Shown here one piece after another: positions 327 through 64,000 of a stretch of DNA of 64,000 nt. A program made the position numbers and the translations under genes. This stretch comes from a virus, in IMG/VR virus record IMGVR_UViG_3300025131_009739, positions 64,001 through 128,000 of that record. One strand, written 5' to 3'. Each line of letters starts with the position of its first letter. Position 1 is the first letter of the stretch. The notes below the pieces were generated by a model. That model searched no databases. It had not been told where the DNA came from and saw only the letters and a program-made list of their open reading frames with translations.

Positions 327-335
327 ATTATATCA
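327..335 (-). promoter_or_regulatory. Putative extended -10 promoter (TGaTATAAT) for a leaderless ruvC-like transcript
   Basis: The minus strand reads TGATATAAT-GTAATT-GTG: a consensus TGn-TATAAT 6 nt before the start codon, with no room for a Shine-Dalgarno. The TGA is also the stop codon of the upstream gene. Confidence 0.45.
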
Positions 336-1538
336 AAAATCTAACTTAAGCTTAAATGTAAATTCTCGATCTTCAGTTTTTTTAACTGGTGTTGCTAATT
401 TAGCAACACCTAAAAGATTTTTATCATCGTCGTAAAGCCCAATTTGAGAAATATATGTTTGTTTCTTAAAACTAGCGCTGTGATGTGAGTGAGAACTAGT
501 GACTATATTTTTTATTAGCATTTTATCACTCTCAAAGTAACTTGTCATACTAGCTGTAATGTCCGTAGATTCAGGTCCGGACCCAGATTTTCTATATGTT
601 GGATTACTTGAATGATTTAAAAGGCCTTTTGGAGCATGAGCTAACATTGTTAATGTCGGAACATAATTTACCCCTTCAAATTCCATAGAATAACTGGAAG
701 AGAACGCATCACCAGTGTCGTATGTAGGGTCATTAGCTCCGTTCGCGAAGAAATACCATGCTGGGGCCTGTGAGGCGCCGGTGGTTCCGTTGTGATATAC
801 ATCTGTAAAGGCGCCTTCGTGTAAGTCCCATGACCCAGTTAAAATAAGAAACCCTTCATTGTATAATACAACTCCAGCTACATTACCAGTAGCATGAACC
901 GAACTGGTAACTTCGATTAATTCTCCATTTTTACCTATATCATGCAACTCTGCCAATAAAGTTCCACTTACATAATATTTTAAACGAACAGACCCTTTTC
1001 TTATGGAAGATCCATAAAAAATAGAAGGAATACTTATTAAACTTAATCTTTGTGAATTTTTTTCACATCCTGGAACATTAGATGATGAATATGCATAATG
1101 AGGACTATTAACTGTGTAATAATCTAAAGTAATACGAAGAGCGTCAATATAGTCTCTTGGATTAGCCAGAGCAGAATGTGAAAATGATATAGAAGCAGAT
1201 AAAGGATAAGAGCCCTGTATCTCATCTCCGTATGAAAAGTCAGTATTAAAGTCGCTAGTTGCAGCTGTTCTGAACGATGTTAAACTTCCCTGTTTTGTTA
1301 TAAAAGGATATATTAGCTGGTCAGATGACCTATCAACATTTAGCTCGTATAAACTAACATATCCATATGGAACGTGATTCAAAAAATCACTTGTAGCTGT
1401 GCGATTAGCGTCGGATCGCATAAATTTTGGATTGTTGTTGTAATAAACTTGGCCATCATAAATAACAAATTCATTTTTAGGATAAGTCTTTATCCTATTA
1501 TGAAATACATCCGTTGGTCCAAACTTATAGTATGGCAT
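333..1538 (-). CDS. Putative phage tail/baseplate-associated structural protein (paralogue of 1542..2741)
   Basis: 401 aa. It shares GxxxYxxGxxxL, N.S.NPTY and a C-terminal YIxxxGLYxxDxxLLxVAKLxxPxKK...KLDF motif with the next ORF. That motif resembles the C-terminal part of phage tail-collar/fibre-attachment domains. It lies in a structural gene context. Confidence 0.6.
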   Translation of the reverse strand: MPYYKFGPTDVFHNRIKTYPKNEFVIYDGQVYYNNNPKFMRSDANRTATSDFLNHVPYGYVSLYELNVDRSSDQLIYPFITKQGSLTSFRTAATSDFNTDFSYGDEIQGSYPLSASISFSHSALANPRDYIDALRITLDYYTVNSPHYAYSSSNVPGCEKNSQRLSLISIPSIFYGSSIRKGSVRLKYYVSGTLLAELHDIGKNGELIEVTSSVHATGNVAGVVLYNEGFLILTGSWDLHEGAFTDVYHNGTTGASQAPAWYFFANGANDPTYDTGDAFSSSYSMEFEGVNYVPTLTMLAHAPKGLLNHSSNPTYRKSGSGPESTDITASMTSYFESDKMLIKNIVTSSHSHHSASFKKQTYISQIGLYDDDKNLLGVAKLATPVKKTEDREFTFKLKLDF

Positions 1539-1541
1539 TTT

Positions 1542-2741
1542 TTAATAATCCAGACGCACCCTCATTGTCAGCTCTGTATCGGGCGTTTTTTTCAGAGGCT
1601 CAGAGAGCTTGGCAACTGCTAACAGTTCATTATCAGCAGAATATAGTCCAACTGTAGTAATATATGACACAGGCTGATCTAATGAAGTGTTTTTAACTTG
1701 AATTTTACTAGCGCTCAGATAAGTTGGATTTGCGCTATAATTAAACTCATTATGATTTGCTCTACAGAAATAAATTGTTGAATTTAATTCTGTTGTGTTA
1801 TTAAAAGAAATACTTTGAATTCTGTTTCTTATCGCATCTGCAGAGGCTGAAATTGCGGATCCTGTCAACACTGCTCCGAAGGTAGCGATTCCGCCATTAT
1901 TTGGATTGTGAGGAAGATGGACTGGATAATCTGCTCGCGAGGCTGTAACATGATTGAGAAAATGATCAGAAGCAGAAAGAACAATTATACCAGCTTGATA
2001 AAAGATGAGACCAGAAACACCAGAGCCTCCGACGCCCGGGCCTGCGATGGGGACCGCAGATAGGTCCGAAACTCCAGCAATTACAGATGCCGACAACACA
2101 CCATATTCTCCAGCTGGTGAATCAGTATAATATGATCCGGTACCCTGATCGTCGTGAATTTTGGTAATGTAGCTCCAAACCTTCGGTTCGGCGGAGTCGG
2201 GACTTGCAAGAGAACCAGTGCCCATATAAAGACTAAAGGAGCCTTTTTTAATTTCATCTTTTACTAATAAACGCGAGAAACTAATAAAATAACCTTGAAG
2301 AATTTCATCTCCACCTGGAATTTTAAACTTCTTGATTGTTCCATCAGTGTTGTGACCCATAAGAATCTGAGCCATTTGATTGTAAATATTTAATTTATCA
2401 CTATTTTGATAGTTATTAAGTCCACTTAGATCTGGTCCGCCCCAAATATGTGTTTTCCCATCATGGTGAGCAGCGCCGGTAGCGTGCCATCTAGAACTGG
2501 AATGGTATCCGCAAGTGATGTCAAAAATGTGATTCGCAGATGAACTCAGATATGGATAATCATAAACAGATTGAAACATTCCGTGAGAATAATTTTTGAT
2601 ATTATTTTCGCTTCCAAGTTCAATGGTGGAAGCACCATATGTACCAGAAACAATTGTCCCTGTTATAGGAATCGCTTCATGAAGCAGCGTTCTAGTTGTT
2701 GTAACATCATTATTTGCATAAGTTTTAAATGTTGTAGCCAT
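1542..2741 (-). CDS. Putative phage tail/baseplate-associated structural protein (paralogue of 333..1538)
   Basis: 399 aa. The C-terminus is NYSANPTY...SYITTVGLYSADNELLAVAKLSEPLKKTPDTELTMRVRLDY. The protein is Ser/Thr/Gly-rich. Confidence 0.6.
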   Translation of the reverse strand: MATTFKTYANNDVTTTRTLLHEAIPITGTIVSGTYGASTIELGSENNIKNYSHGMFQSVYDYPYLSSSANHIFDITCGYHSSSRWHATGAAHHDGKTHIWGGPDLSGLNNYQNSDKLNIYNQMAQILMGHNTDGTIKKFKIPGGDEILQGYFISFSRLLVKDEIKKGSFSLYMGTGSLASPDSAEPKVWSYITKIHDDQGTGSYYTDSPAGEYGVLSASVIAGVSDLSAVPIAGPGVGGSGVSGLIFYQAGIIVLSASDHFLNHVTASRADYPVHLPHNPNNGGIATFGAVLTGSAISASADAIRNRIQSISFNNTTELNSTIYFCRANHNEFNYSANPTYLSASKIQVKNTSLDQPVSYITTVGLYSADNELLAVAKLSEPLKKTPDTELTMRVRLDY

Positions 2742-12000: not shown

Positions 12001-15000
12001 TTAAGTTCCTGGAACCTCCGAGCCCGGTGGTGGCTTTTGTGGAGGAATCGGAGGTAGCCATGGCAAGTTCACATTGCCGGCAACATCAGATAAAGTAGCC
12101 ACATCATCTCCAATGGCTCCTCGAAGCTTGTATTCAGCTTCTACTTGTACTAGTTCAACAAGAGAAAAGAAATCATAAGGCCAATTATAATTATAATCTG
12201 GCTTCTTTAATTTTTCATCTCCAAACTCAAATTTAAACCTTTTGTCGTCTTTTGTGTCCTCTGTTACATTAAAGTAACTTTGCTCTGCTTTTTTCTTAAC
12301 TTTGAAAACCATCCATCTGACATCTTTTGGCATCGTATTAAGATTTAAGAAATCCCAAGAGGCTGCAAGATCTAACGTTATGCTTGCCTCATCTTTTTGC
12401 GCTTCCGTAGCAATTTTTGGCATAAGATTTTGCCAAATATCAATAAGATCTTGTTTTTTCAAACAATGATGAAACTCGAAAATAAACATGGCAAATGGAT
12501 CTATGCTACGATTTTTAATAAAATTCATATGTGGCGGTAGATAATACTTGCTCATTTTATTAACCATCTCGGTTATCGCTTTACTTGGAACACTAGACCC
12601 AAAGGCAGCTGCGCGTTTTGCTAGGTCGTCGAGATTTGTTTCGGGCGACCTTTGTAAAAGCTGGGCATAATCAATGTGTCTTCGTGTAATTGGAAAGAAT
12701 GGACTTGTTCCTTCGTCATAATTTGATCTTATTGGTATAGCGACAACAGCTTCAGAGATGATTTTATTATCTGCAATTTGACCTAATTTTCTGTCCGGAC
12801 CAACGAGACCAGAAGGTTCTTTAAATCCTAATACTTGGTATAATGATCCTGTTTGTCTGTGACCTAACCTAGTTTCATCAGACGGCTGAGTTCCAATCCC
12901 GTGTAGTGCATTTTCTCCAGCGCCTCCGAGCATTGCTTTTAATATGGCTGTTGGGTGTGATTCTCTCAAGCCCATATAAATTCCTTGAGAACCGGTTGGT
13001 TCGACTCCGTAACCATACCACATTCCGCGAGTAGAATAACCGAGATTCGTATCTATATTGCCAGAGAAATTTAATATTGGTGTTTCAAATTTTGGAGAAA
13101 TAACCCATGCATCCAAAGACTCATCACCTTTCGATGCCTTCGCTTCTATCGCCTGACCAGTGATTGGATTATATGTAATCTCTGGTACAGTTGTTCTACC
13201 AAAAAGATTTATTGACGATGCAACTCTCATTTTGGATTTGAAAGCAAGACTTTCATTGCCTTGCCCTTCTTCGCCAATCTGAAATGAACCAGATCCGTAA
13301 TCTTTAAGAAGGTTCCAAGATTCTCTCCAATTAGGATCATATGTTGTTTCAACCTGGGCGCCGGCTATAACTTCTTCTATTGTAAACTCAGCAAGTTCTC
13401 CATGAGAAGAATGAAGATCAACTGCTGAAAGCAATAGTCTGTGTTTATGTGGAGAAAAAGCTAATCTCGCTACTGATTTGCCATAGAAATATGGCGGTGT
13501 ATAAGGAGCAAAAGCGGGATCTTGCGTTTGTGCTGCGACGTAGACCAAACTGGTAATTGGATCAAGAGGGTAATTATGTGTTTGACAAGTTGGTCCATAA
13601 TGTATTCCCCTTGCTGAACCAGATTGCATATCTTGTTTATTGAAAGCCAAATCGCCGGAGCTGCGGCCAGCTTTGAATGGGAAATCTGGCCCTTCAAACA
13701 TGATCATATCTTCATATGGGTTGTGTCCGGGAGGTTTGTCAACTGCGCTGCCGCTCATGCTGTATTTTTTTCCTGACTTTCTCAATGTCACATCCATAAA
13801 ATATGTTGTTCCAGATAACATCTGAAATCTTCCCGGAGTCGACGTAAAGCTTTGGAACTTGCCTTTATCCAAGAAAAATCTTGGTATTTCTCCCAAGAAA
13901 TTGTGCATTGCCATTGAGTAATTTGGTGTGTAATCTCCTGTCCAAAGCGCGTGCTTTCCTTGAGTGAGATCGGTTATCTCGCCGGCGAGCCCTGGAGGGT
14001 GTATTAATGGTATTTCCGATCCTACGCCGTGGTCTCCGGAGTGGCTGACTGGCAGATATGTATGAGGTTCTATGAGAGACTCGAATGGAAAACGAATATT
14101 ATGAATTTTTTCATATTCAAGACCCTCAGTGCCGACGTCGTCCGATCCTGTTTGGGTAAGATAACCCATGCCAGCGAAGCCGATTGCGTTTGGCAACGAT
14201 CCAGTCCAATGTGGCCAATCTACAGCGATGCCTGATTTAATTGTATTATACATAATACCAGGGGCGAACCATGGTTGCAATAACGACTGTAATTGTTCTT
14301 GTGGGTGTACTTGTGGTGTCTTTCCGGCGAATGCAATAGATGAGGTTAAATGTGGTCCATAACTTTGCGAGAACATAGAACCCAATTGCACACATCTCAA
14401 TACTGGATAAAAACCATTATATGGTAAGAGTTTTTTAACTGCTTTGCACTTTAATGTAAATTCTTTTGCCCTTCCTTTAACATCTTTCTGATAGTCGTTG
14501 CCAATAAGCTCTACAAATTTCATAAAATCAGAATGAGAATATAGTTTGTAGAATGGCAAATTTCCAGTGCTAATTGGAGTATCTGAACTTGCAGTGTGTA
14601 ATGCACCGACAAGAGATAAGAATTTTTTGTTCGTGGCAGCAAAGCCATTATCAATATAATAATCCATATGATCTGAAATTTTAAATTCTGGGAGGATTGA
14701 ATAACCTTGTCCCATTGTTCTTACATCTACTGCCCACTGATCATATGAATCATAAAAAGGAGACTTCCCAGACAACAGTGAAGCACTATAATGAGGTTTA
14801 AAGTGTGCCCCACTGATGCCCTGGTCCGCATCCCATGAATCATGCTGGATGATGTGAAGATATTTAGGAGGGATGAAGGTCTCAAAATTTGCAATAGGCG
14901 TCATGGACATATATTTATTTTGGAATAAATATGTCTGTGAAGCGGTTGGGACGGATCGTAAGCTATAATGAACAGAATCGGTTTTTAAGGTGTTTGCAAC

Positions 15001-25579: not shown

Positions 25580-25599
25580 TTATACCAATCCTTTTAGAA

Positions 25600-25606
25600 A
25601 TAATTA
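25600..25606 (-). promoter_or_regulatory. Candidate late-promoter motif TAnTTAT (TAATTAT)
   Basis: 20 nt upstream of ATG 25579, inside a 30-nt gap. Confidence 0.45.
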
Positions 25607-25609
25607 GTA

Positions 25610-41746: not shown

Positions 41747-41748
41747 TA

Positions 41749-44424: not shown

Positions 44425-44425
44425 T

Positions 44426-45778: not shown

Positions 45779-45780
45779 TT

Positions 45781-52091: not shown

Positions 52092-52092
52092 T

Positions 52093-53439
52093 TTAGACTC
52101 CTTTTTCAATAAAAAAACTATTCACAATTTTTCGAATATATTTTAATTTTTCTTTTGTTAGGCCGGCGTATGTCCCTAGAAAAAAAGAATTGGTCGCAGC
52201 CTTGTGTGCCACAGGAAATATTTCCTTTAAATCACCATATTGTTCTGCAATATCTGAATAAGCAGGATGATACAATAAGTTGCCTGAGAAATAATTTCTA
52301 GTCTGAATTTTGGCATCTTCTAAGTATTCCACAAAATCTGCTCTACTAAAAGAGGAGCTTTCTTTAATGGTTAGCAAAAAAGCAAACCATGATGGATTGG
52401 ATTTTTCCGTTGCTTTTGGAAGATGAAAATATTTTTTATACGGTTTAAAAACATCTAAAAGATAATTGAAGTTTCTTACACGAGAAGAATGAAAGCTTTC
52501 TACTTTTTTAAGCTGCTCTAATCCAATCGCAGCCTGCATTTCTATTGGCTTAAGATTAAATCCTATTTCACTGTATACATATCGATGATCATAAATTATA
52601 TCTTTATTTTGAGGAAGCCATTTTCTGAATCTATTCCCGCATGCAGTTCCACCAGTGACATCTCCTGGCTTTTTTGTGTTACAATAACAAGCCCTTCCCC
52701 AATCACGCAAACTTAACAAAACTTTATAATTTCTTACTTTGTTTGTCGCTACAAAGCCACCTTCTCCTAATGTCATATGATGGGCTGGATAAAAGGAACA
52801 AGACGACATATCACCAAAAGATCCTAATTTTTTACCATCATAAGTTGAGCCTAAAGCATCGCATGCGTCCTCTAATAGAACCAAGTCATACCTTTTAACC
52901 AACTCCATTACTTTGTCCATATTTGGGGGGTTTCCGAGCGCGTGAGCGAACATTATAGCCCTGATCTCTTTGTCTGTATCTTCTTCTAGCACTCTTTCAA
53001 CTTGTTCCAAATCTAAATTTAAATCAGGCAAAGTTGAATCAACAAAAACCGGGATGAATCCGGATTGGAGTATGGGATTAACTGTCGTTGGAAAACATAC
53101 AATTGGAGTAATAATCTTTGTTCCGACAGGGAAATTGTAAAGATTTTTAGACTTGAGAGCCGAGACCATCAATAAGTTAGCTGAGCTTCCGGAATTAGTT
53201 AAAATTCCATTGTTCATTCCTAAATGAGGCGCAAACTCCTCCTCAAATTGTCGACTCTTTTTTCCAAACACTAACCAACCATCGACCAAAGATTTAATAG
53301 CAGCAAGATATTCATCTTTTGAAAATACATCCCCTGAGTAGGAAACCCAATCTTCTCCTGGCGTCCACTTCATCTCTTGCCTCTTTTTATTTTCTATATA
53401 TTCGGAAAGAGGCTCTAATATCTGTTCTAACTCACTCAT
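52093..53439 (-). CDS. rfbH: CDP-4-keto-6-deoxyglucose 3-dehydrase (E1, RfbH/DdhC)
   Basis: 448 aa. Motifs: NSGSSANL, AHALGNP, EDACDALG, SFYPAHHMTLGEGG (His at the PLP-Lys position), RDWGRACYC...C..RF (Fe-S cysteines), YDHRY. Confidence 0.88.
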   Translation of the reverse strand: MSELEQILEPLSEYIENKKRQEMKWTPGEDWVSYSGDVFSKDEYLAAIKSLVDGWLVFGKKSRQFEEEFAPHLGMNNGILTNSGSSANLLMVSALKSKNLYNFPVGTKIITPIVCFPTTVNPILQSGFIPVFVDSTLPDLNLDLEQVERVLEEDTDKEIRAIMFAHALGNPPNMDKVMELVKRYDLVLLEDACDALGSTYDGKKLGSFGDMSSCSFYPAHHMTLGEGGFVATNKVRNYKVLLSLRDWGRACYCNTKKPGDVTGGTACGNRFRKWLPQNKDIIYDHRYVYSEIGFNLKPIEMQAAIGLEQLKKVESFHSSRVRNFNYLLDVFKPYKKYFHLPKATEKSNPSWFAFLLTIKESSSFSRADFVEYLEDAKIQTRNYFSGNLLYHPAYSDIAEQYGDLKEIFPVAHKAATNSFFLGTYAGLTKEKLKYIRKIVNSFFIEKGV

Positions 53440-54430
53440 CCTTCAAATAATCCCATTCATATGTTTTCCTATAAGAAGACCATGGTATATTTGTTTCTTT
53501 GTATTCATTTTGGAGGATTTTAATAACTGAAGATGTATAACCTTCGTGAGGATAAAATCCCCACTTTTCATGAAATTTGTCATGCGAATGTTTTTCAAAT
53601 CTTAGATCAAAATCTGTATCTCTTTTATGTCTCTTGTTTGGGTGTGTAATAAAGATATCAGGAATCCAAATATTAATCAAGTTGTTTTTTAAAGACTCTA
53701 ATGCCCAATCTTCGTTAAGTAGCATCGTATATGGCCCAAAATCAGCAGCAGGGCCTATCAATTGTAAAGCTTTAGAGCTAACCAAATTAAAATCTAGAGG
53801 TCCGTGACATTTAACTGTTCTTTTTGGAAGATCTAAAAGGTGCTTATTATCATCAGTTAGTTTTTGCCCTAGTTCAAAATTATGACATTCAAATCTAAAA
53901 CGGTCTTCTCTGTCAGTATGAAATCCGGAAGTAGTGGTATCTGATCTGGGGCCATCTGAAATATCCCAGCTACGATCATTGGTACAAACAATCCAACCAA
54001 TTTCATCTTCATATCCTTCGATCTCTTTGACTGCTCTATTATAAAAGTTATCAGTGTTGAGAACAACGTCGTCATGTGTTACTAAAAAATATTTTGTATC
54101 ATCTTTATATTTTTCAACAAAATAATTAAAGTCTTTATACCATGGACCTCGAGTGTGCACAACCTCTAATAAAGAATTCTTTTTGACAACTTTACTTAAG
54201 ACTTTATTCTCGAAAATTTCTCTTACAAAGCGCTTTGTTATTGGCACCTGTTTATGAACCTTGCCACTTTTAAACTCATAGGAAACAAGATTATCAAGAT
54301 CGTCGACAACGATATAAAATTTATAATTGCATTCACCAATATTTTTCGAAATTGTATAAATTGCTTCAAGCAAATTTTCCTTAGCAACAACAGGTCCAAC
54401 ACTCGCAATAAAAACTAAAACATCAAACAT
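53432..54430 (-). CDS. Putative GT-A (GT2-like) glycosyltransferase
   Basis: 332 aa. IVVDD, LVTHDDVV, NEDWAL, ITHP and F.EKWG follow the GT-A pattern, though divergent. The gene is in the sugar cluster. Confidence 0.55.
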   Translation of the reverse strand: MFDVLVFIASVGPVVAKENLLEAIYTISKNIGECNYKFYIVVDDLDNLVSYEFKSGKVHKQVPITKRFVREIFENKVLSKVVKKNSLLEVVHTRGPWYKDFNYFVEKYKDDTKYFLVTHDDVVLNTDNFYNRAVKEIEGYEDEIGWIVCTNDRSWDISDGPRSDTTTSGFHTDREDRFRFECHNFELGQKLTDDNKHLLDLPKRTVKCHGPLDFNLVSSKALQLIGPAADFGPYTMLLNEDWALESLKNNLINIWIPDIFITHPNKRHKRDTDFDLRFEKHSHDKFHEKWGFYPHEGYTSSVIKILQNEYKETNIPWSSYRKTYEWDYLKDE

Positions 54431-55418
54431 CTATCTTCTCATCATTGTTTATTTTTAACATCCAATGATCCACCATTTCATCCAGCATACTTTCAAAAGT
54501 ATATTTTGGAACCCACCCAATAACTTTTCTTATTCTTGAAGAATCTCCTCTTAAATATTTTAGCTCTTCCGGTCTCATATATTTAGGATTCTGAACAACA
54601 TAATCTTTGTAATCCATTCCCAAACGAGTGAAAACATGCTCACACAGTTCACGAATTGAGTGCGTTTTTCCTGTTGCAACTATCCACTCTTCTGGAGTTT
54701 CATGATTTAAAATCATGTGCATCGCTCGAACATAATCTTTTGAATGTCCCCAATCTCTATAAGATTCTAAATTTCCAAGTTCTAGTTTTTCTCTTAGACC
54801 TTTTTTAATCTCTACAGCCGTTTTTACAACTTTATTTGTTACAAAATTAGACCCTCTTCTAGGAGACTCATGATTAAACAGAATTCCATTGCATGCATGT
54901 AAATTATAGGCATTTCTGTAGTGCCTGACCAAATTAAATGCTAATAATTTGGCACAACCATATGGGCTAACCGGTAGCATAGTGGTTGTCAATTTTTGTA
55001 AACCATCTTCTTCTACTGAATTACCAAACATTTCTGATGAACTGGCCTGATAAAATTTTGCCTCTGGTACAATTGTTCTATATGCTTCAAGCAAGTTCAA
55101 GACAGCTAAAGCGTTTGTTTGTATTGTAAAAGAAGGCATATCAAAACTAATTCTAACATGGCTCATTGCAGCTAAATTATATATCTCATCTGGTTGGACC
55201 TGTGTAATAATTCTTGTTAAAGATGAAACATCTAACATATCACCATAAAAAGTTTCAATAAGCCCATGTAAATGTTTTATTCTACTATCTTGATTTTCAG
55301 ATACTGAACTTCTTCTCACAATGCCATATACTTCATATCCCTGTTCTAACAAATATTCTGCTAAATAACTTCCATCTTGTCCGGAGATTCCAGTAATAAG
55401 CGCTCGTTTTTTAGTCAT
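54423..55418 (-). CDS. gmd: GDP-mannose 4,6-dehydratase
   Basis: 331 aa. Motifs: ALITGISGQDGSYLAE, YNLAAMSHV.ISF, YQASSSEMFG, SPYGCAK, GILFNHESPRRG, RDWGH. Confidence 0.93.
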   Translation of the reverse strand: MTKKRALITGISGQDGSYLAEYLLEQGYEVYGIVRRSSVSENQDSRIKHLHGLIETFYGDMLDVSSLTRIITQVQPDEIYNLAAMSHVRISFDMPSFTIQTNALAVLNLLEAYRTIVPEAKFYQASSSEMFGNSVEEDGLQKLTTTMLPVSPYGCAKLLAFNLVRHYRNAYNLHACNGILFNHESPRRGSNFVTNKVVKTAVEIKKGLREKLELGNLESYRDWGHSKDYVRAMHMILNHETPEEWIVATGKTHSIRELCEHVFTRLGMDYKDYVVQNPKYMRPEELKYLRGDSSRIRKVIGWVPKYTFESMLDEMVDHWMLKINNDEKIDV

Positions 55419-55478: not shown

Positions 55479-55847
55479 TTAAGATGGGCAGCCAGCTGTA
55501 ACGCAGCCACCTGGTGGAGGACTCGGACTGTCTTTTTCTGCTTTGAAAGAAGTCCCGCAGGCGCAACTTTTAACTGCTTTAGAATTATCAAATTTAAAGC
55601 CAGATTGATGCAAAGACTCAACATAATCTACTACTGTTTCTCTTAATTGAAAGCTGCTATAAGGATTTAAATAAATTTTAACCTTCCCCAAGTTAACTAT
55701 AATATCATCAGGCTTAGAGCTTTCATCTACTTCAATGGTATAAGAAAGCCCCGAACAACCACCGCCGACGACGCCTACTCTAACGATGTCTTCAGAATCT
55801 AAAGCAGATTCTAGCTTTTTGATCGCAGCGGCTGTAAAAGTGATCAC
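55479..55847 (-). CDS. iscA: A-type Fe-S cluster carrier (IscA/HesB family)
   Basis: 122 aa. Motifs: ITFTAAA, RVGVVGGGCSGLSY, VDY......GFKF.N, SCACGTSF. Confidence 0.88.
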   Translation of the reverse strand: MITFTAAAIKKLESALDSEDIVRVGVVGGGCSGLSYTIEVDESSKPDDIIVNLGKVKIYLNPYSSFQLRETVVDYVESLHQSGFKFDNSKAVKSCACGTSFKAEKDSPSPPPGGCVTAGCPS

Positions 55848-55850
55848 CTT

Positions 55851-57182
55851 CTATGCACTCCTAATTGAATCTTCGATGACATTGAATTTTTTGAGATCTT
55901 TGCCTTTAATTGTAATCAAAGGAGCGCTTTCCCATGTTGGGTTTGATTTTCCGCAACCGCTGCCTGCTTTAACGTCTCCCATATTGCTCTTATCAATAAA
56001 GTCATCTTCTGTAAGAATACTGTCATATCTTACTGGAACTTCTGAGTCGCCATAAGTTTTTGAAATAACATTTTGAATAAAACCCTTATCAACGCCACAA
56101 ATGCATGGCATATTTTTCCTAGGATCAAACCACTTAATGTTCAGTCCTCTATTAATGATACCTTCTAGTGGTTCTTCAAAAAAGTTTCCAAGAGATACAT
56201 GTTGATAAGGACATGGCATAACATCGCCATATCTAGAAATTGGAACCATTCTTTTTACAGCAATACACCCGATATCTCTTCCGTAAGATGGTGTCATGTG
56301 TGTGAAAATATCATACTCTTCTTCAAACTTTTGTAGAATAGCTCCTTCCTTCTCTGTCATCATTTGCTCTGTTTGATTTTCAAAGGCGCCAACTGGTTTT
56401 GCATAAACAACATAAGTACCAACTTTCTTCTCCTTTGCAAACTCTAGAAAATCAACCCATTCGTCTGTATAGATTCTATCCTTCCAAATAACAGTTGAAA
56501 GAATAACGTGCAAATCGGCTTCTTTACAAGCATCGATTGCTCTCATAGTTCTATCAAATGATCCCGGCTTGCGCCTAAATGTATCATGAGCTTCGGCAGT
56601 AATACCATCCAAACTCAGCTGTACTTTATCAATGCCTATTTTCTTTAAGTGGCTAGCTTTTTTTACATCCAAATTCCATCCATTGGAATCAATAACCAAA
56701 TAAAATTTTTCTGGATTAATTGCTTCGACCAACTGATCAAAGTCTTTCATAATCAAAGGTTCGCCACCGGTGATCACGAAGTTAGCCAAACCCATTTCAT
56801 CCGCTTCTTTTGAGAGTCTTCTCACATCGTCCATCTCAAATTTTCGTCTGCCAGAAGCCTCTTCCCAGTCTCTAGGAACATAAAATTTATCAATGCAACA
56901 ATGTTCGCAATCCATATTACACATATAATCATATTGAAATTGAATGATAGCAATGCTCTGCCCATTTGCAATCTTTTCAGGATATTTCTTCATTTTTTCA
57001 TATACATATGGTTTATAATTTTTTAACCAAACTTGACGCAAAGACTCATCTTTAACAGTTGTGTTTTGCATCACTTTCCCTTCTGCCATTGCTTGCAGCT
57101 CTTCTTTAGAGTAAACTGGTGCCTGGTCATATTTATTTCCCTCTAATGGGGTTTGAAAAATTGTATCGTGTGAATTAGACAT
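55851..57182 (-). CDS. Radical SAM protein (SPASM/twitch-type C-terminus)
   Basis: 443 aa. Motifs: CNMDCEHC (CxxxCxxC), TGGEP, SNG, QLSLDG..HD.FR, GC.A......YGDVMPCP....GN...C. Confidence 0.88.
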   Translation of the reverse strand: MSNSHDTIFQTPLEGNKYDQAPVYSKEELQAMAEGKVMQNTTVKDESLRQVWLKNYKPYVYEKMKKYPEKIANGQSIAIIQFQYDYMCNMDCEHCCIDKFYVPRDWEEASGRRKFEMDDVRRLSKEADEMGLANFVITGGEPLIMKDFDQLVEAINPEKFYLVIDSNGWNLDVKKASHLKKIGIDKVQLSLDGITAEAHDTFRRKPGSFDRTMRAIDACKEADLHVILSTVIWKDRIYTDEWVDFLEFAKEKKVGTYVVYAKPVGAFENQTEQMMTEKEGAILQKFEEEYDIFTHMTPSYGRDIGCIAVKRMVPISRYGDVMPCPYQHVSLGNFFEEPLEGIINRGLNIKWFDPRKNMPCICGVDKGFIQNVISKTYGDSEVPVRYDSILTEDDFIDKSNMGDVKAGSGCGKSNPTWESAPLITIKGKDLKKFNVIEDSIRSA

Positions 57183-57573: not shown

Positions 57574-58710
57574 TTAAAAGACTTTTTCTAATCCTGTGTC
57601 TCTCAATATAGAAACCTTTAAAGATTTGTCAAAGTTTTTACGTATCTTTTTAGCTACTTCATCAGAATAACTCGCTGCCATAACAACAACTGCTTCGACC
57701 GGGTTGGTTTCTAGATTTTCTGCAGAGACGATTGGAACGTGTGTAGCAGGAGTATACTTGCCTTGTTTAAACGGGGCGTCATCTACAACATATTTTATTT
57801 TATCTTTTAAGTCTGCTAAAGCAATAACTGCTAATGCCTGATGGCCAGCTCCCCACACTGCCACACTTTCAAAATTATCAACATATTGTTTTATTTCATT
57901 TTTAATATATTCTTGATGTTTTTGAAAATCCGATATATCTAACTTCTTTCTTTTTCTAACGACTGCTGAAATAATATAATCATACCAAATTTCATTACAT
58001 TCAACAACCTCAAGCCCATTGTGAATTAATGCTGCTTCCAAAGTATCTTTTGTAAAATAAAATAAATGGTCATTTATAAATTCTGAAAAAAGTTTATTTT
58101 GTATAATCATGTTGAAATTAGGCACCTCGATAAGACCTATTCCATCATCAGTTAAATTATTTACTATACCTTTAAGGACAATATTTGGATCTGGCAAATG
58201 CTCGAAAAAATTCATTATGAAAAATGCTTCGAAAGGGTGCCCTTGTATAGAATCTTTATCATTTTCAATATATTTTTTTGAAACATTCAAACCATTTGAA
58301 ACGCAATGATCAACTGACTCCTGTGAATATTCTATACCATATGCCTCAACGCCAGATTCATTCATAAGAGATAAATATTCTCCCTTGCCGCAACCAACTT
58401 CTAAAACCTTTTTACCATAAAGATTATATTTTTCTACAAAGTTCTCAAATTGTTTTAACCTGAACTCTCTCATTTCTTCTGAAAACGCTGCAGCTCTTAT
58501 AACCTCTTTATAATATGACACAGGATCATTCATTAGTTGTACTAATCCGCAGCCAGAACACTGGTATACATCTAAATCAACCCCATTGTCATATTGTAGG
58601 GAATCTCTATCTGGCATGTTTTGTGCCGCCTTTGGCATATTTTTATATTGCAAAAGAGGTTCTTCAAAAAGATTATTCTTGCAAACTCTACATTTATTTT
58701 TAGTATTCAA
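57574..58710 (-). CDS. NDP-sugar C-methyltransferase-like protein
   Basis: 378 aa. It has an N-terminal Zn site (CRVC...CSGCGLVQL), LEVGCGKG, FEH, EVP, HLFYF, and a C-terminal WGAGH...VDD...KQGKYTP..HVPI as in sugar C-methyltransferases. Confidence 0.8.
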   Translation of the reverse strand: MNTKNKCRVCKNNLFEEPLLQYKNMPKAAQNMPDRDSLQYDNGVDLDVYQCSGCGLVQLMNDPVSYYKEVIRAAAFSEEMREFRLKQFENFVEKYNLYGKKVLEVGCGKGEYLSLMNESGVEAYGIEYSQESVDHCVSNGLNVSKKYIENDKDSIQGHPFEAFFIMNFFEHLPDPNIVLKGIVNNLTDDGIGLIEVPNFNMIIQNKLFSEFINDHLFYFTKDTLEAALIHNGLEVVECNEIWYDYIISAVVRKRKKLDISDFQKHQEYIKNEIKQYVDNFESVAVWGAGHQALAVIALADLKDKIKYVVDDAPFKQGKYTPATHVPIVSAENLETNPVEAVVVMAASYSDEVAKKIRKNFDKSLKVSILRDTGLEKVF

Positions 58711-59593
58711 ATTTTTTTCCTAATAAAATTTCTTCTTTTAAAATGTGCTTGTTTTCTTCGTACCATTTATACATATTTCTAAGTGAAACATCAATTGGAG
58801 TAAGTGTCAAATCTTTTATTTCGTTTAAAAGTAAAGAATTGTCTCCACTATATTCTCTTCCAGAACCACCAACTGTTATTTCTAAATCTTTTGAAGATAT
58901 CTTTACAACTTTCTCTGCAACTTCTCTCCAAGCAAATGGCCTTCCGTGGCAAACATTGTATACGTTTTTTTTAGGTTTATTTTCTATAAACCATTCTATA
59001 ACCTTAACAAGATCGTCGATATATAAGAAATCATATAAAGAATCTTGTTTAACATGAATTGGCATGCCAAGCGCGGCCTTACTACTAATATTAGAAATAA
59101 AACGATATCTCCAATCATCATATTTTCCAAACACAGCAAAGAGTCTAAGATTGTACACATTGTTGCTCGCTTGAGCATGTTTTGTCATCATATATTTTGA
59201 TAGACCATATTGGTCTTTAGGAACGTGTTTATCAAAATAATCTTCATCCATCAACGACTTCCAGTTGTCGCGATCAAATTCAGCACCAGAACCAAAAAAA
59301 ATCATTTTATCAAAATAGTCTCCACATCTTGCAACATTAGAAAACATCCTTAAGTTCATCTCTAAAACTTTATTTGGTTCTTTTGTAGTAAAATTAGGAG
59401 CAGCATCATAGTTTACAGCATTAATGACCACATCAAAATTATTCTTTTTAATGTAAGAAAAAACACTTTCTGAATCTAAAACATCTAGTTCTTTTCTACC
59501 TGGAGTATAAAAGTCATATTTGTCCTTAAGATTTTCAAATATATTTTTTGCTATAAAACCAGAACCGCCTGTAACCAAAACTTTTTTAGTCAT
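58700..59593 (-). CDS. NAD-dependent epimerase/dehydratase/reductase (extended SDR)
   Basis: Motifs: VLVTGGSGFIA, GSGAEF, YGLSK, LRLFAVFG, DFLYIDDL. Confidence 0.85.
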   Translation of the reverse strand: MTKKVLVTGGSGFIAKNIFENLKDKYDFYTPGRKELDVLDSESVFSYIKKNNFDVVINAVNYDAAPNFTTKEPNKVLEMNLRMFSNVARCGDYFDKMIFFGSGAEFDRDNWKSLMDEDYFDKHVPKDQYGLSKYMMTKHAQASNNVYNLRLFAVFGKYDDWRYRFISNISSKAALGMPIHVKQDSLYDFLYIDDLVKVIEWFIENKPKKNVYNVCHGRPFAWREVAEKVVKISSKDLEITVGGSGREYSGDNSLLLNEIKDLTLTPIDVSLRNMYKWYEENKHILKEEILLGKKFEY

Positions 59594-61370
59594 CGGCAAT
59601 TTTCATATTTGCATTAAATTCTTCTCGATCCAAAAGAGGCAAAAGATCTTCCATTGGTAATGCGATAAACGTGCCATCTTCTCTTTTATGTGTTGAATTT
59701 CTTGGCAAAGTTTCATGAGTGTGCAACATCATAACTTCACAAACAACGGGGCCATCTTCATCTAGCACTTCTTGAACTTGTTCATAAATATTATCTTGGT
59801 CCGTTATCCTAAAATATTTTATACCATAAGAATTAGAAATCTTTTCAAAACTAGGCAAAGTAACTCCACTGTTTTCTCCGCTAGCAAATTCATTTTTAAA
59901 ATGCTTTTCTTGAGAATTCCTTATAGAAACATATCCCCCATTATTTAATACAAAATATTTGATTGGTAAATTTAGTCTTCTAACTGTTTCTAACTCTTGA
60001 ATGTTCATTACAAAGCCGCCGTCTCCGTCGATACAAATAGTATGTCGGCGCTCTCCGGCGATACAGCCGCCAATGGATGCCGCAATACCAAAACCCATTG
60101 CGCCCAGTCCTTCGCTGTTAAATATTCTCATGCCTTTCGTAACTTTAAAAGATTGCATAGTGACTTCACTACAACAGCCTGAACTTCCAGGTATTAACAA
60201 GTCTGTCGGTTTAGCCAAATCAGATAGAACATCTATTAAAACGTAATTGTTGACATGTTCCTTTTGTTCCCAATATTCAGGAACAATAACAGGATATTTA
60301 GCTTGCCATTCTTTGCACTGTTGAAGCCACTTTGGAAATTCATTATTTTTTTGTTCTTTTTGATTCAATGCTTCTTCTATAAAATCTCCAGCATCAAAAT
60401 CTATAGAACAGTCAACATGAAATTGCATTTTTTCAATTTCGGCAGGGTCAATATCAACAATTACTTTCTTTGCTTTTCTTGCAAAGTTTTTGTGGTTAAA
60501 CGCTGTTTGACCATGATCCAATCTTGCACCAATAGATATAAACAAATCGGCAGTTTGTTGAGAAAAATTAGCTCCTCTTTGTGCCGCTAATCCCGGGCGC
60601 CCTACAAAAAGTGGATGTTCTTCTTCCATAAAATCTAACGACTTCCACGTTGTCATGACAGGAATATTTAAGAAATTAGCTAATTCTAAAAATTTCTCTT
60701 CAGCATTTGCAGATCTTATTCCATTGCCGGCAAGAATAACAGGTCTTTTGGAACTGTTTAATAATTCGTAAAAATAAGAAACTTTTTGTTTTAGTTCTTG
60801 CGTTCTATCTTCTTCTGACTCTTGTTCATATGACTTAAGTAAATTTATATCAATCTCTGTTGACTGGATATCAAGAGGTATCTCAATCCATACGGGGCCT
60901 TGACGACCAGTTGTTGCCAAATGCCAAGCTTTTTCTAAAACTGATTTAATATCATAAGGATTTAATACTGTAGTCGCATATTTTGTGATTGGTTTAACAA
61001 TACTGACTACATCTATTTCCTGAAATCCTATTTGTCTTACTTTTTTGTCTCCTCTAACATCTTTACTCTGTACTTGTCCTGAAAAGACAATCACAGGAAT
61101 CGAATCAAGCCATGCTGACGCTATCCCGGTAATAGTGTTCGTTGCTCCCGGGCCGGCAGTAACAAGACAAACTCCCGGCGAGTTATTGTATTGTGCATAT
61201 GCCTCTGCTGCGATGGCTGCTGCTTGTTCGTGCAAAGTACAAACATAATTTATATCACTCTTTCCAACAGAGTCTATTAATGGTAAACAAAAGCCACCAG
61301 AAAGAGTAAAAATGTCTTTAATACCTTTTGTTTCCAAAAATGAAACAACGTAATCTGATAGTTTTGTCAT
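59586..61370 (-). CDS. Thiamine-diphosphate enzyme, acetolactate synthase-like (YerE-like sugar carboligase)
   Basis: 594 aa. Motifs: HEQAA..AAE.Y, TAGPGATN, GFQE, GRQGPVWIEIPLD, GAMGFG, GDGG...NN (TPP motif). The gene is in the sugar cluster. Confidence 0.85.
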   Translation of the reverse strand: MTKLSDYVVSFLETKGIKDIFTLSGGFCLPLIDSVGKSDINYVCTLHEQAAAIAAEAYAQYNNSPGVCLVTAGPGATNTITGIASAWLDSIPVIVFSGQVQSKDVRGDKKVRQIGFQEIDVVSIVKPITKYATTVLNPYDIKSVLEKAWHLATTGRQGPVWIEIPLDIQSTEIDINLLKSYEQESEEDRTQELKQKVSYFYELLNSSKRPVILAGNGIRSANAEEKFLELANFLNIPVMTTWKSLDFMEEEHPLFVGRPGLAAQRGANFSQQTADLFISIGARLDHGQTAFNHKNFARKAKKVIVDIDPAEIEKMQFHVDCSIDFDAGDFIEEALNQKEQKNNEFPKWLQQCKEWQAKYPVIVPEYWEQKEHVNNYVLIDVLSDLAKPTDLLIPGSSGCCSEVTMQSFKVTKGMRIFNSEGLGAMGFGIAASIGGCIAGERRHTICIDGDGGFVMNIQELETVRRLNLPIKYFVLNNGGYVSIRNSQEKHFKNEFASGENSGVTLPSFEKISNSYGIKYFRITDQDNIYEQVQEVLDEDGPVVCEVMMLHTHETLPRNSTHKREDGTFIALPMEDLLPLLDREEFNANMKIADD

Positions 61371-61371
61371 T

Positions 61372-61833
61372 TTAGCTTTTTATTTCTACTAACTCTAAAG
61401 CGCATCTAATGCCAGTACTTGGCGGTACTCTATAACCAAAAAAAGTATGGAAGCTGCTAGCTCCTTCTTCTCCATATGCTAGTCCGGGAGGTATTATTAA
61501 TTTTCTTTTTTCGCCAACTTTCATGTCTAAAAATGCCTCATCAAAACCTTTTATTGAATCACCCTTTTTATATAAATCGTCTTTTGGCGTTTCTTGTCCA
61601 ATAACAAAATCAACAGGACCATTAAAAGGCTTATCTTCATATGTATCATCACAAAGCTCATCTACATATTCTTCGTTTTCATAATCATAATTTGATGTAG
61701 TGGTACCTTTAGAAAAGCATATTTCATAATGAGCTGATACTGTCTGTCCAACAACTGGCTTTTCTCCCGCACCTTCATGAACCTTCTTCATTTTCAAACC
61801 GCTTTGTGTTGCTGGCATATCATCAAAAGTCAT
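61372..61833 (-). CDS. FKBP-type peptidyl-prolyl cis-trans isomerase
   Basis: 153 aa. Motifs: SGLK...EGAG..P..GQTV.AHY, IKGFDEA..DMKVGEKRKLIIPPGLAYG, VPP...ELVEI. Confidence 0.85.
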   Translation of the reverse strand: MTFDDMPATQSGLKMKKVHEGAGEKPVVGQTVSAHYEICFSKGTTTSNYDYENEEYVDELCDDTYEDKPFNGPVDFVIGQETPKDDLYKKGDSIKGFDEAFLDMKVGEKRKLIIPPGLAYGEEGASSFHTFFGYRVPPSTGIRCALELVEIKS

Positions 61834-62029: not shown

Positions 62030-62042
62030 TTTATTCCTCCTA

Positions 62043-63551
62043 TTAAATCCAATGTGTTATAAAAGTCTTTCTATTGTTATTGCTTTGTATCTCTAAGTCT
62101 GTATAATAAGAATCGTTTGTGTAGTGTGTTGAAGAAACTTCTTCAATAACACACCCATTCCTAGTAGCAAACTCATGTCTAACTTCTGGCTCGATAGTAA
62201 CTACATCTCCCTTCTTGAGAGCATGTAACTTTTCATTTAAATATAAGTCGACATCCCCATATAAAACAACAAAAGTTTCTTCCTTCTTTTTGTGATATTG
62301 TTCAGGATGTTTTTGTCCCGGAAGTGCAATAATCAATTTTTTACAATATTCACGGTTGATAACTGTAATCATGGTTATCCCTGTTTCATAAAAATTATCA
62401 ATTCCATAATGATGGGAAATCTCTAAATTTGCTTGGCCGGGGTGAACAACATTTGATTTGGCCAAAAAATTCTTTACTTTTTGAACTATGTTCCAAATTT
62501 TTTCTCTTGTTTCAACTTTATATGCGCTGCCTAGAATAGGTTCATTTATTTCATATGTTCTGTTAGCAATATAATGTGTATATTTTGACATATCATTTGC
62601 TAAAATTTGTTCTGGTTGTGCTGGCCACGCATAAAAAACATTTGTTCGATCAATGGATTCGCCTTCTTCGATTTTTCTTTTGGCAAACGCGCCTCTCTTG
62701 AATTGTCTTAAGTCGCCAAGTTCTTTATCACTATTATTATGACGCTCTCCAGATACTCCACACATTTTTATTGCCTCTGCTGCTGAGTGTAACCACTTTT
62801 TGACTTGTTCTGGAGTAGCAGAATAAGCATTTTTAGAATATTGTTCTGTTTCCAGTGCAACATGTTTTTCAAAAACTTTTACACCTTTAGCAATTGCTAA
62901 TTTAATTACATCAAAATTATTTGGATCTTCGTGAGTCGAAAAACCAATAGTCACGTCCTGATATCTGTCATTGAGAAAATCAATTTGATTTAATTGTAGA
63001 GAATTTACTTTGGTGGGGTATTCTCCAACACAATGCATGATTGCAAATTTCTTATTTCTATTTTTAAAGAAACTGATAACATTGTCTATATCGTTCAAGG
63101 AAGACCCGGCAGTAGACGCAATTGTAGGCAAATTTAATTCTACCACTTTATTTAAAAGTGGCCAATCAGTAAAAGAACAACTTGCAACTTTAATATAATC
63201 GAAATTTAATTTTGCTATTAAATCAACTGACGGCTCGTCAAAAGCAGTACAAATTGTTTTAAAGCCATGATTTTGAGCTTCTGTTTTAAGAAGATTAAAA
63301 TCATCTTCACTCAGCCTCGTTTCTGAAAATCTTTTTACATATTTTAAATCAGTTCTGTCCTTATAATCAGGATGAATAAAAGAATCAATATCCCTAAACT
63401 GAAACTTGACTGCGTATTGAAAAGCTTTTATATTTAATTCGTTTACAATTTCTGAATATTTTCGAATCATATCTAAGCCATGTTGAACATCTCCCATATG
63501 ATTGTTAGCAAATTCAAAAATAAATAAATTTTCAAACTCTACATGTTCCAT
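62043..63551 (-). CDS. neuB: NeuB-family synthase fused to SAF and C-terminal cupin domains
   Basis: The likely start is 63551. Motifs: IFEFANNHMG, VKFQFR, KVASCS, MHCVGEYP, GFSTHE, FEKHV, a SAF segment (KRGAFAKR.I..GE), and a cupin (HPEQYHKKKEETF...H...EEVS). Confidence 0.82.
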   Translation of the reverse strand: MEHVEFENLFIFEFANNHMGDVQHGLDMIRKYSEIVNELNIKAFQYAVKFQFRDIDSFIHPDYKDRTDLKYVKRFSETRLSEDDFNLLKTEAQNHGFKTICTAFDEPSVDLIAKLNFDYIKVASCSFTDWPLLNKVVELNLPTIASTAGSSLNDIDNVISFFKNRNKKFAIMHCVGEYPTKVNSLQLNQIDFLNDRYQDVTIGFSTHEDPNNFDVIKLAIAKGVKVFEKHVALETEQYSKNAYSATPEQVKKWLHSAAEAIKMCGVSGERHNNSDKELGDLRQFKRGAFAKRKIEEGESIDRTNVFYAWPAQPEQILANDMSKYTHYIANRTYEINEPILGSAYKVETREKIWNIVQKVKNFLAKSNVVHPGQANLEISHHYGIDNFYETGITMITVINREYCKKLIIALPGQKHPEQYHKKKEETFVVLYGDVDLYLNEKLHALKKGDVVTIEPEVRHEFATRNGCVIEEVSSTHYTNDSYYTDLEIQSNNNRKTFITHWI

Positions 63552-64000
63552 TTCTTTCTCCAATAATTTCGTACAATTTCATCATATTTTATTTCATCTT
63601 GATGCACATCCCAAGTACATTGTTCGGAATGCCACCTGTAATAATAACCTAAAAAAACATTAACAGGATATATAAAAACGTTATTTTCGGCAAATCCACA
63701 AAATATGTCATAATCACCTGCTCCTGCTTCTTGTATGCCACTATTTTTATGGGCTTCTCCGCCATATGGAGTCCAATTCATCAAGGGATATAAGCTTTTG
63801 TGATACACTACAGAAGGGGTATTAACTGGACTTCTTATCATACACTGTTTTTTGAAATCTGTTAAACTTTTATAAAAATATGTTTGTTGGTCGGCAGTGT
63901 TTCCATTCCTAACTCCAATTATGGGACTTTGTATACATTTAATTTTTTCTAGATCGTGAGTAAGTATCTTCATACAATTTGATATATAATCGTTTGAGAT
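63539..64000 (-). CDS. GT2-family glycosyltransferase (partial; starts beyond the right edge)
   Basis: The frame is open from 64000 (ISNDYISNCMKIL...). VNTPSVVY...GAGDYDIF...GYYYRWHSEQ.T are GT2 C-terminal motifs. Confidence 0.7.
   Translation of the reverse strand: MSNDYISNCMKILTHDLEKIKCIQSPIIGVRNGNTADQQTYFYKSLTDFKKQCMIRSPVNTPSVVYHKSLYPLMNWTPYGGEAHKNSGIQEAGAGDYDIFCGFAENNVFIYPVNVFLGYYYRWHSEQCTWDVHQDEIKYDEIVRNYWRKKWNM

Follow-up and report, generated by a model that had tools for sequence, protein, structure and literature searches.

To what does a phage attach the rare sugars that it is equipped to make? The question is raised by a 64,000-nucleotide stretch of viral DNA (the window), which comprises bases 64001-128000 of one linear 165,872-bp IMG/VR virus contig (IMGVR_UViG_3300025131_009739; G000), and whose source is a large uncultured marine myophage. 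A preliminary description of the window had recognised a cluster of co-oriented sugar genes at 41960-64000 and had proposed that, within the cytoplasm, their products are O-linked to virion proteins of the phage itself. The cluster itself is confirmed: every open reading frame from 41960 to 64000 lies on the minus strand, and the sugar pathways named for it are borne out by profile searches with Pfam and NCBIfam. Its boundary at 41960 likewise stands, but the end of the window is not its limit: the island continues for 5.6 kb with five more genes, among them two family 4 glycosyltransferases (GT4), and reaches ~69594, an extent of ~28 kb and ~32 genes (beyond the window we continue the window numbering; coordinates of record L001 are window coordinates minus 63000).

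Glycosylation of virions by phages and sugar gene clusters of giant viruses are already known. New are the scale of such a cluster in a phage and its nonulosonate, dideoxy- and branched-sugar content; its nature as a hypervariable island (0-24 kb) at a fixed locus, with strain-level swapping between conserved flanks; and a conserved GT4 pair, probably heterodimeric judging from structure prediction, which extends to cultured phages.

A sugar island beside a conserved transferase pair

Relatives were found with two queries, the tubulin-like gene of the window (more than 100 related viral contigs) and the first GT4 gene (eight more). Mapping of the window proteins onto related contigs reveals a constant frame, which consists of PhoH, small genes, a nuclease, the two GT4 genes, a variable block, four small conserved genes and the 94-aa gene at 39115. 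The variable block measures 24 kb in this contig, about 20 kb in an 85-93%-identical contig, and 18, 9 and 4 kb in the relatives G001, G005 and G004, respectively; Rhodothermus phage RM378 possesses the GT pair alone, with 0 kb of sugar genes. Content is mosaic even in the 85-93%-identical relative, in which some island genes are 86-88% identical and others are swapped for 26-45% homologues or for unrelated genes, and a 91%-identical relative (L007) is without the three genes at 42885-45437, including the aminotransferase at 42885. The four small genes of the downstream flank (69, 85, 101 and 237 aa; 40517..41958, minus strand) adjoin every island variant. The 237-aa protein at 40517, previously labelled as a sigma factor, has no match in Pfam, PHROGs or PDB sequences and profiles, and we drop the label. 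A chimeric assembly near 41.9 kb, a possibility raised earlier, is ruled out: the junction is genuine because independent contigs, at 87-94% identity, have their genes in the identical order on both sides of it. When 50,697 phage records were searched with the island by megablast, no match was obtained, and tblastn of the sialyltransferase-like gene at 50236 and of a 552-aa protein described below gave none either.

The constant transferases of the frame (66061-67353 and 67329-68594, identified by Pfam on L001) have the GT-B fold and the C-terminal EX7E motif of retaining GT4 enzymes. Both match Pfam Glycos_transf_1 (9e-13 for the first protein, 1e-6 for the second), and E288...E296 is invariant in each. 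The model of the first protein (pLDDT 81) finds its best fold match in chlorovirus NY-2A B736L (E 3e-19, TM 0.72-0.77), a protein whose function is itself unproven, followed by MshA and BshA (TM 0.62-0.78). The two are not close paralogues, their similarity being limited to 25 residues around the EX7E motif. They are predicted to form a heterodimer: the complex score was 0.85 in three runs (best control 0.00), partner pLDDT was at least 87, and contacts agreed to at least 95% between runs. The mark for this score is reached by 58 of 80 solved complexes and by 2 of 110 mismatched pairs, counts that apply here approximately, since the alignments were of our own making. In the predicted complex the otherwise disordered C-terminal tail of the first GT4 runs along residues 256-265 of the second.

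Orthologues of the first GT4 at 28-34% identity occur in vB_FspM_immuto (immuto; a Flavobacterium phage), Microcystis phage Mel-JY01, a 484-kb uncultured phage and RM378. By the baseplate protein, the nearest cultured phages of our contig are Mel-JY01 (33%) and immuto (31%), and across the Flavobacterium, Microcystis and Rhodothermus phages the divergence of the GT pair equals that of this baseplate protein. Such deep conservation at a divergence like that of structural genes argues for an acceptor that belongs to the phage. In immuto (genes 89 and 90) and Mel-JY01 the first GT4 has a PD-(D/E)XK nuclease before it and a second GT-B protein, with further sugar genes, after it. In RM378 (L139, record 9165-11893), a thermophilic phage in culture, the pair is flanked by a small 'DNA polymerase I-like' gene on one side and by ribonucleotide reductase on the other, and the system has its minimal form. 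The two GT4 proteins are probably the initiating enzymes.

A partial parallel is found in the O-GlcNAc transferase GtfA/GtfB, adjacent GT-B proteins that act in the cytoplasm as a heterodimer and modify Ser within S-A-S-like stretches of a serine-rich-repeat adhesin, GtfB serving as an inactive chaperone. The likeness lies in the two GT-B subunits, predicted here to pair as well. Homology is not indicated: the GT4 pair has no Pfam or NCBIfam match to GtfA/GtfB, DUF1975 is absent, and a 17.6-bit match to SdgA is all that was found. Neither phage protein resembles an inactive chaperone such as GtfB, because both keep EX7E.

The preliminary description had also pointed to the lack of export, polymerase and priming genes in the window, and this observation holds over the 166-kb contig and three complete relatives (191-203 kb): hydrophobic-segment counts and the Bac_transf profile revealed no priming phosphoglycosyl transferase, flippase, ABC permease, polymerase or ligase there. 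The contig has no protein with at least five hydrophobic segments and no Bac_transf match, and the complete relative G005 has none with at least four. In G001 and G004 the proteins with at least four segments are only one of 324 aa (four segments) and those of 900-1000 aa (seven or eight), sizes unlike Wzx/Wzy, and no island gene of any fetched relative exceeds two segments. By gene content the island does not appear to be a Wzx/Wzy- or ABC-dependent surface polysaccharide locus. Because export, polymerase and priming genes are absent from the contig and the complete relatives, assembly of the glycan probably takes place in the cytoplasm, on a soluble acceptor.

Which enzyme makes the attachment had been answered by analogy with the Maf family, the flagellin nonulosonate O-glycosyltransferases, to which the gene at 50236..51141 (minus strand) had been compared as one of three transferases. 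Of these three, one GT2 is supported by Pfam and a second GT-A-like protein, at 53432, is an ESM Atlas lead only, whereas the 'Maf-like' protein proves closer to CstII. It matches Pfam PF01973 (MptE-like/DUF115) at 37 bits (cut-off 34.6) with only 45 residues aligned; PF01973 is found in 63 of 63 homologues, and the family has a length of ~300 aa. Foldseek with its model (pLDDT 92) places CstII/CstI first (probability 1.00, E 9e-6 to 1e-4, TM 0.40-0.50), with alignments of ~300 columns at 12-16% identity, consistent with the GT42 fold; the Maf structure 5mu5 comes sixteenth (E 5e-4, 22% of Maf covered by TM), and the phmmer matches to CstII are weak (E about 0.2). The protein shares a fold class with both CstII/CstI and Maf, at identities of 11-16%. 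However, Maf has ~630 aa with extra domains, which are missing from the 301 aa of this single protein, and with the multi-domain ~600-aa architecture lacking and CstII/CstI the closer fold, it is rejected as a Maf orthologue. CstII, in turn, sialylates a glycan rather than a protein. In relatives the block reads RmlD-like, RfbH-like, dehydratase, 50236 homologue and NeuB; the CMP-transferase comes directly after or is a few genes away, and the homologues always lie between dehydratase and NeuB; because of this position a CMP-nonulosonate donor is likely. The gene thus belongs to the variable nonulosonate module of the island and encodes a sialyltransferase-fold protein that probably uses CMP-nonulosonate; the Maf analogy for the attaching enzyme finds no support.

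A tripeptide motif in virion proteins

Can the acceptor be read from the virion genes? That the sugar genes run in one direction with the structural genes had been taken as a hint, but co-orientation carries no information because 165 of the 179 called genes of the contig lie on the minus strand. The abundance of Ser/Thr motifs in structural proteins, also noted earlier, is more telling. The motif [ST][GAS]S was tested against 300 composition-preserving shuffles for every protein of at least 100 aa in the contig, and its excess is real and falls almost entirely on virion proteins. A 3366-aa protein with a ConA-like lectin domain (Laminin_G_3 match; 12001..22101, minus strand) contains 49 motifs versus 13.3 expected (z 10.2; orthologues z 4.5-8.4) and is a candidate fibre and acceptor. 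The strongest density is found in the adjacent 552-aa virion-module protein (22104..23762, minus strand; 18 versus 3.4, z 8.1), also a candidate acceptor and likewise enriched in its orthologues. Two paralogue-sized 400-aa proteins (333-1538 and 1542-2741; 333..2741, minus strand), further candidates, have 9-10 motifs versus 2.3-2.5 (z 4.6-4.7), with orthologues enriched in G001 and G004 and more weakly in G005, a pattern that holds for the orthologue excess in general. Upstream of the window PHROGs identify sheath, portal, large terminase and neck protein; of these the sheath (11 versus 3.6, z 4.1) and the neck protein (6 versus 1.5, z 3.7) show the excess, as do two further head/tail-module proteins (z 3.3-3.4).

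The excess is not shared by all large or structural proteins. It was not found in the 994-aa and 1320-aa proteins, and z lies below 0 in the baseplate wedge proteins, gp6-like (23762-25579) and gp25-like (25610-25996; together 23762..25996, minus strand), whose earlier identification as baseplate genes is upheld by PHROGs. The 3036-aa protein (26070..35180, minus strand) has z -0.4 and is only 24-45% identical where its neighbours are 78-91% identical. None of the contig's sugar enzymes exceeds z 3, and only two non-structural proteins do, a DnaB-like helicase and a trypsin-like peptidase, with three motifs each. The motifs are dispersed, without low-complexity tracts. Position -1 is hydrophobic or aromatic in a fraction of 0.46-0.53, versus a background of 0.31, and charge is avoided there. 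All 11 sheath motifs of the contig are confined to the N-terminal 655 aa, which the conserved core does not include, and across four genomes 30 of 30 sheath motifs fall into this non-core N-terminal region of ~650 aa.

The excess also follows the GT pair among genomes. Counting proteins with z >4 and at least five motifs, genomes with the pair have five (G000), six (G004), four (G001), one (G005), four (immuto) and two (RM378), whereas those without it have none (S-BM3; LuckySocke; Xoo-sp13, 40-309 kb) or one (T4, 70-169 kb), the latter being gp32 only. Structural proteins are among the enriched ones of immuto; no structural protein is enriched in T4, S-BM3, LuckySocke or Xoo-sp13.

Where the sugars may go

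The explanation that we favour, and to which we give about an even chance, is that the island and the GT pair act in the cytoplasm and glycosylate virion proteins of the phage itself. The pair, at the island's upstream end, would act as a cytoplasmic heterodimer that starts the glycan on exposed virion proteins, of which the outer domains of the sheath, the neck protein, the 552-aa and 3366-aa baseplate-distal proteins and the two 400-aa proteins are candidates; attachment may take place at Ser/Thr of hydrophobic-[S/T]-[G/A/S]-S motifs. The variable island genes would produce sugars in activated form (6-deoxyhexoses, 3,6-dideoxyhexoses, sugars that are C-branched or methylated, and two nonulosonic acids), and up to five more transferases from the variable part, the CstII-like one included, would extend and cap the glycan. 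As a consequence, phage strains would differ in the glycan on a shared scaffold. Of the virion O-glycosylation first proposed, the soluble acceptor and the phage-intrinsic target are supported, but not the role of Maf or the argument from co-orientation. A more specific version would make the island a 'glycan serotype' locus in a widespread marine myophage family, in which a heterodimer of two active GT4 enzymes primes a short sequon (hydrophobic-[S/T]-[G/A/S]-S) on tail, neck and fibre proteins at the surface, and a recombining 0-24 kb island sets which rare sugars, nonulosonic acids among them, coat the particle. In this version viruses would have an analogue of the O-antigen variation of bacteria, and a protein-glycosylation sequon would be defined for the first time in phages of Gram-negative-type hosts; we consider it less likely than not.

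Systems of related kind exist. In mycobacteriophages, soluble phage glycosyltransferases together with methyltransferases modify the phages' own capsid and tail proteins in the cytoplasm, and the glycans shield the particle (Freeman et al. 2023, Cell Host Microbe, as cited in PMC12619734). As described in that account, these are siphoviruses of Actinobacteria with few transferases and sites at protein C-termini; our island, in contrast, is known from genes and combines ~25 sugar-synthesis genes, nonulosonic acids and a GT4 pair in a marine myovirus of Gram-negative-type hosts, with dispersed tripeptides. Chloroviruses glycosylate their capsid, and Gmd and an Fcl-like enzyme are present in them as in this island. 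Among the Megavirinae, clade-specific clusters of 6-33 genes make rare sugars and glycosylate the fibrils (PMC10117803). The giant viruses are alike in having virus-encoded nucleotide-sugar pathways for rare bacterial-type sugars and transferases that act on the particle surface; however, they infect eukaryotic hosts and show no homologous gene order, whereas the variation described here takes place at one fixed locus between close strains.

If the favoured explanation is true, some abundant marine phages devote up to a sixth of their genome to coating their own particles with strain-specific rare sugars, which would bear on phage stability and stickiness to marine gels, on recognition by grazers and host decoys, and on competition between related phages. 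Glycobiology would gain a way of building complex glycans on proteins with soluble components and no membrane. Experiments can address the question directly, as the conserved pair has cultured carriers in immuto (on Flavobacterium sp. LMO8), Mel-JY01 and RM378.

Several points weigh against virion glycosylation. It is a conclusion drawn from genes, and the contig is an incomplete genome (CheckV 48% complete, no terminal repeat). The motif was chosen after the sequences had been inspected, and the pair-bearing genomes form one broad lineage, so that the contrast with the four controls comes near to one of a single lineage versus others. About half of the motif positions are conserved between orthologues, which does not separate a structural element from a sequon, and with its preceding hydrophobic residues the motif could belong to a strand-turn element of these folds. 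Despite the pair and a 9-kb island, enrichment in G005 is weak (observed/expected 1.11), and motif density does not track island size. The island of immuto does not adjoin structural genes, lying about 20 kb from its baseplate genes. Finally, the PD-(D/E)XK nuclease is linked to the pair in every lineage, the RM378 pair lies among replication genes, and both GT4 proteins match Pfam GT4-conflict (PF20706) weakly.

These last three points are what speaks for DNA hypermodification, in which the pair and the island would put sugars on the phage's bases as a protection from host nucleases, while the adjacent nuclease, which adjoins the pair in the window's family, immuto and Mel-JY01, would spare the modified DNA. 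Precedents are not lacking: phage GT-A and GT-B enzymes add mono- to trisaccharides to 5-hydroxymethylcytosine (5hmC; preprint 10.1101/2023.12.21.572611), arabinose chains are built on phage 5-hydroxycytosine (5hoC; PMC13326640), and oligosaccharides are found on thymidine in SP-15-like phages (PMC12686479). Such systems (T4 alpha/beta-GT, 5hmC-glycan clusters, RB69 arabinosyl-5hoC, SP-15/Carin-5) resemble ours in combining phage GT-A/GT-B enzymes, and sometimes nucleotide-sugar genes, near DNA-metabolism genes. However, they need 5hmC, 5-hydroxymethyluracil (5hmU) or 5hoC from a ThyA homologue or 5mYOX/TET, or special polymerases, none of which was found in the contig or its complete relatives. 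A thymidylate-synthase homologue (PF00303) was not found in the contig and four complete relatives, Tet_JBP (PF12851) was not found in the contig and the complete relatives (a weak negative, as the controls were negative too and the search was thus without a positive control), and none of immuto's DpdA/Que (7-deazaguanine) genes was found in G000, G001, G004 or G005; with ThyA, Tet_JBP and Dpd/Que absent, no source is known from which a base with a hydroxyl or other reactive group could come. Moreover immuto, a distant relative with the same nuclease-GT-GT order, shows no glycosylated base: in its virion DNA, liquid chromatography with ultraviolet and mass-spectrometric detection found dA, dC and dT to be canonical and dG to be replaced by fdPreQ1, and no adduct with a sugar was reported (preprint 10.1101/2023.04.13.536721). 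Seven transferases and nonulosonic acids go beyond any known DNA glycan, and full-length contigs of this phage family assemble from ordinary metagenomes. We therefore consider DNA, whose mention as an alternative in the preliminary description is weakened, a very improbable target. The ThyA homologue of immuto is unusually long (423 aa; L131, record 27299-28570), even though the DNA of this phage has canonical dC and dT.

Alternatively, phage-made sugars and peripheral transferases could feed the lipid-carrier, flippase and ligase machinery of the host and alter its lipopolysaccharide (LPS), capsule or envelope glycan, e.g. to block superinfection or to keep progeny off debris. The sugars are of a kind typical of O-antigen and capsule (RfbH-type dideoxyhexose, ThDP-branched sugars, nonulosonic acids), the mosaic, strain-variable content recalls bacterial O-antigen loci, and a lipid-linked acceptor is common for soluble GT4 and GT2 enzymes. 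An equivalent proposal exists for the 24 'LPS genes' of cyanophage P-SSM2 (PMC1079782), a lytic marine myophage with a comparable cluster of two dozen epimerase, transferase and synthase genes of undefined target. The T4-like cyanophages are, however, a different phage family, and cyanophage S-BM3 has neither the GT pair nor a motif-enriched protein. We think it unlikely that remodelling of the host surface accounts for the island, given that the priming transferase, flippase, polymerase, ligase and ABC permease were not found in the contig and three complete relatives, that the pair is kept across phages whose hosts belong to three phyla with unrelated envelopes (Bacteroidota, Cyanobacteria, Rhodothermus), and that RM378 retains the pair without sugar genes; the motif excess of the virion proteins would also be left unexplained. 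A further alternative is some other soluble acceptor, which might be a small molecule, a free oligosaccharide or a host protein whose modification serves takeover or anti-defence; the motif would then be an unrelated trait of the lineage. The present data tie no transferase to a particular acceptor, the context of the motif (hydrophobic before, small residues within) fits a beta-strand-to-turn element, and the fold of the first GT4 also matches MshA and BshA, which act on small molecules. Nevertheless, the spending of 5-28 kb on diverse rare sugars, exchanged from one close strain to another, is more characteristic of glycans that are exposed at a surface and diversified by selection than of an effector inside the cell, and we know of no precedent for such a non-virion system in phages, which makes an acceptor of this kind improbable.

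Sugar pathways of the island and neighbouring genes

The pathways of the island are all encoded on the minus strand within the window, and islands of this type are well stocked with enzymes for branched, dideoxy and nonulosonic sugars. The island's final gene (41960..42910) encodes an Fcl-like (GDP-L-fucose-synthase-like) short-chain dehydrogenase/reductase (SDR; Pfam Epimerase 3e-55; NCBIfam GDPFucSynFcl 274 bits, below the cut-off of 500), and a Gmd-like GDP-mannose-4,6-dehydratase is found at 54423..55418 (Pfam GDP_Man_Dehyd 1e-112; NCBIfam gmd 370 bits, cut-off 415). A sugar aminotransferase of the LegC/PseC family (42885..44018; Pfam DegT 4e-109; NCBIfam LegC 291 bits, PseC 281 bits) is encoded near tailoring genes at 44426..46832 that Pfam recognises, namely SAM methyltransferases at 44426 and 46137, a 95-aa unknown, a HAD-like phosphatase at 45434 and a cupin at 45781. 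Two SDRs on either side of a glyoxalase/VOC-fold protein (46834..48682; Pfam) form a block with NeuB that is kept in L007. The nonulosonate genes proper are a NeuB-family synthase (48682-49521; Pfam NeuB 6e-71; NCBIfam NeuB 253 bits) and a PseF-like CMP-nonulosonate cytidylyltransferase (49518-50270; Pfam CTP_transf_3 1e-18; NCBIfam PseF 117 bits), next to the sialyltransferase-fold (GT42/DUF115-like) gene at 50236. A second NeuB-family synthase, fused to a C-terminal cupin, lies at 62043..63563 (Pfam NeuB 2e-41 and Cupin_2; NCBIfam NeuB/PseI). In the block 51144..53439, a dTDP-glucose-4,6-dehydratase-like SDR at 51144 (NCBIfam dTDP_gluc_dehyt 309 bits) and an RfbH-type 3-dehydrase at 52093 (NCBIfam RfbH 470 bits, over the cut-off of 423) make up, by their profile matches, a 3,6-dideoxyhexose route.

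A branched-sugar module at 57574..61370 comprises a C-methyltransferase (57574; Pfam Methyltransf_14/13), an RmlD-like reductase (58700; RmlD_sub_bind) and an acetolactate-synthase-like ThDP enzyme (59586; TPP_enzyme N/M/C; NCBIfam acolac_lg 423 bits, below cut-off). In the islands of relatives a split transketolase with N and Pyr domains only replaces the ThDP enzyme (L137, 5740-6836), and one island has an added PanB-like hydroxymethyltransferase (L134, 1404-2342), which suggests alternative routes to C-branched sugars. An IscA/HesB-like Fe-S assembly protein (55479-55847) is the partner of a radical SAM/SPASM protein (55851; together 55479..57182; Pfam, and a generic NCBIfam radical SAM/SPASM match), and an FKBP-type peptidyl-prolyl isomerase-like protein lies at 61372..61833 (Pfam FKBP_C 6.5e-13). 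The IscA/HesB-type and FKBP-type genes (the latter 61372-61833) are unusual cargo for a glycan locus; their products may assist the Fe-S enzymes of the radical SAM and RfbH types.

Up to seven transferases belong to the whole system. Besides the GT4 pair and the sialyltransferase-fold protein, a 332-aa protein (53432..54430) probably represents a GT2-like transferase of the GT-A type; this is a lead from the ESM Atlas only (TM 0.62-0.67 to GT2 clusters), to which Pfam, NCBIfam and PHROG add no match. A 254-aa GT2 (63539-64303, of which the C-terminal part, 63539..64000, lies in the window; Pfam) is followed beyond the window by a GT1-like gene (64290-65222; Pfam on L001) and a virus-specific 281-aa unknown (65219-66064) with an ESM Atlas lead to GT1. 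Past the two GT4 genes follow the PD-(D/E)XK nuclease, a metallopeptidase-like protein and PhoH. None of the island genes was recognisable as one for a hexose-1-phosphate nucleotidyltransferase, and the starting NDP-sugars would probably come from the host. A promoter scan of the island gave 75 promoter-like sites versus 83 expected by chance; because such sites are no commoner than chance, expression timing cannot be inferred from them.

Among the neighbouring genes, the baseplate genes have a giant ORF on either side (3036 and 3366 aa); the 3036-aa product has two hydrophobic segments and no family match. Between this gene and the tubulin-like gene, at 36330-39115 (minus strand), lie two adjacent genes for ~460-aa proteins with VanY/M15-like and Amidase_2 domains, which may be virion-associated lysins. 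The tubulin/FtsZ-like protein (39386..40480, minus strand) keeps its earlier label with reservation, since its Pfam Tubulin match (28 bits) is below the cut-off of 33, and it stands outside the sugar system. The gene is 57-91% identical in more than 100 viral contigs (L012-L086 among them), in which its neighbourhoods differ: genes 40517 and 39115 are its neighbours in the contig and the nearest relatives, it is missing from that spot in G004 and G005, it is 46 kb away in G001 (111914-113041), and elsewhere it is located within head or replication modules. It looks like a relocating gene. A trypsin-like serine peptidase at 72021-72815 (L001, 9021-9815, plus strand), just upstream of PhoH, is one of the rare plus-strand genes and is conserved in relatives.

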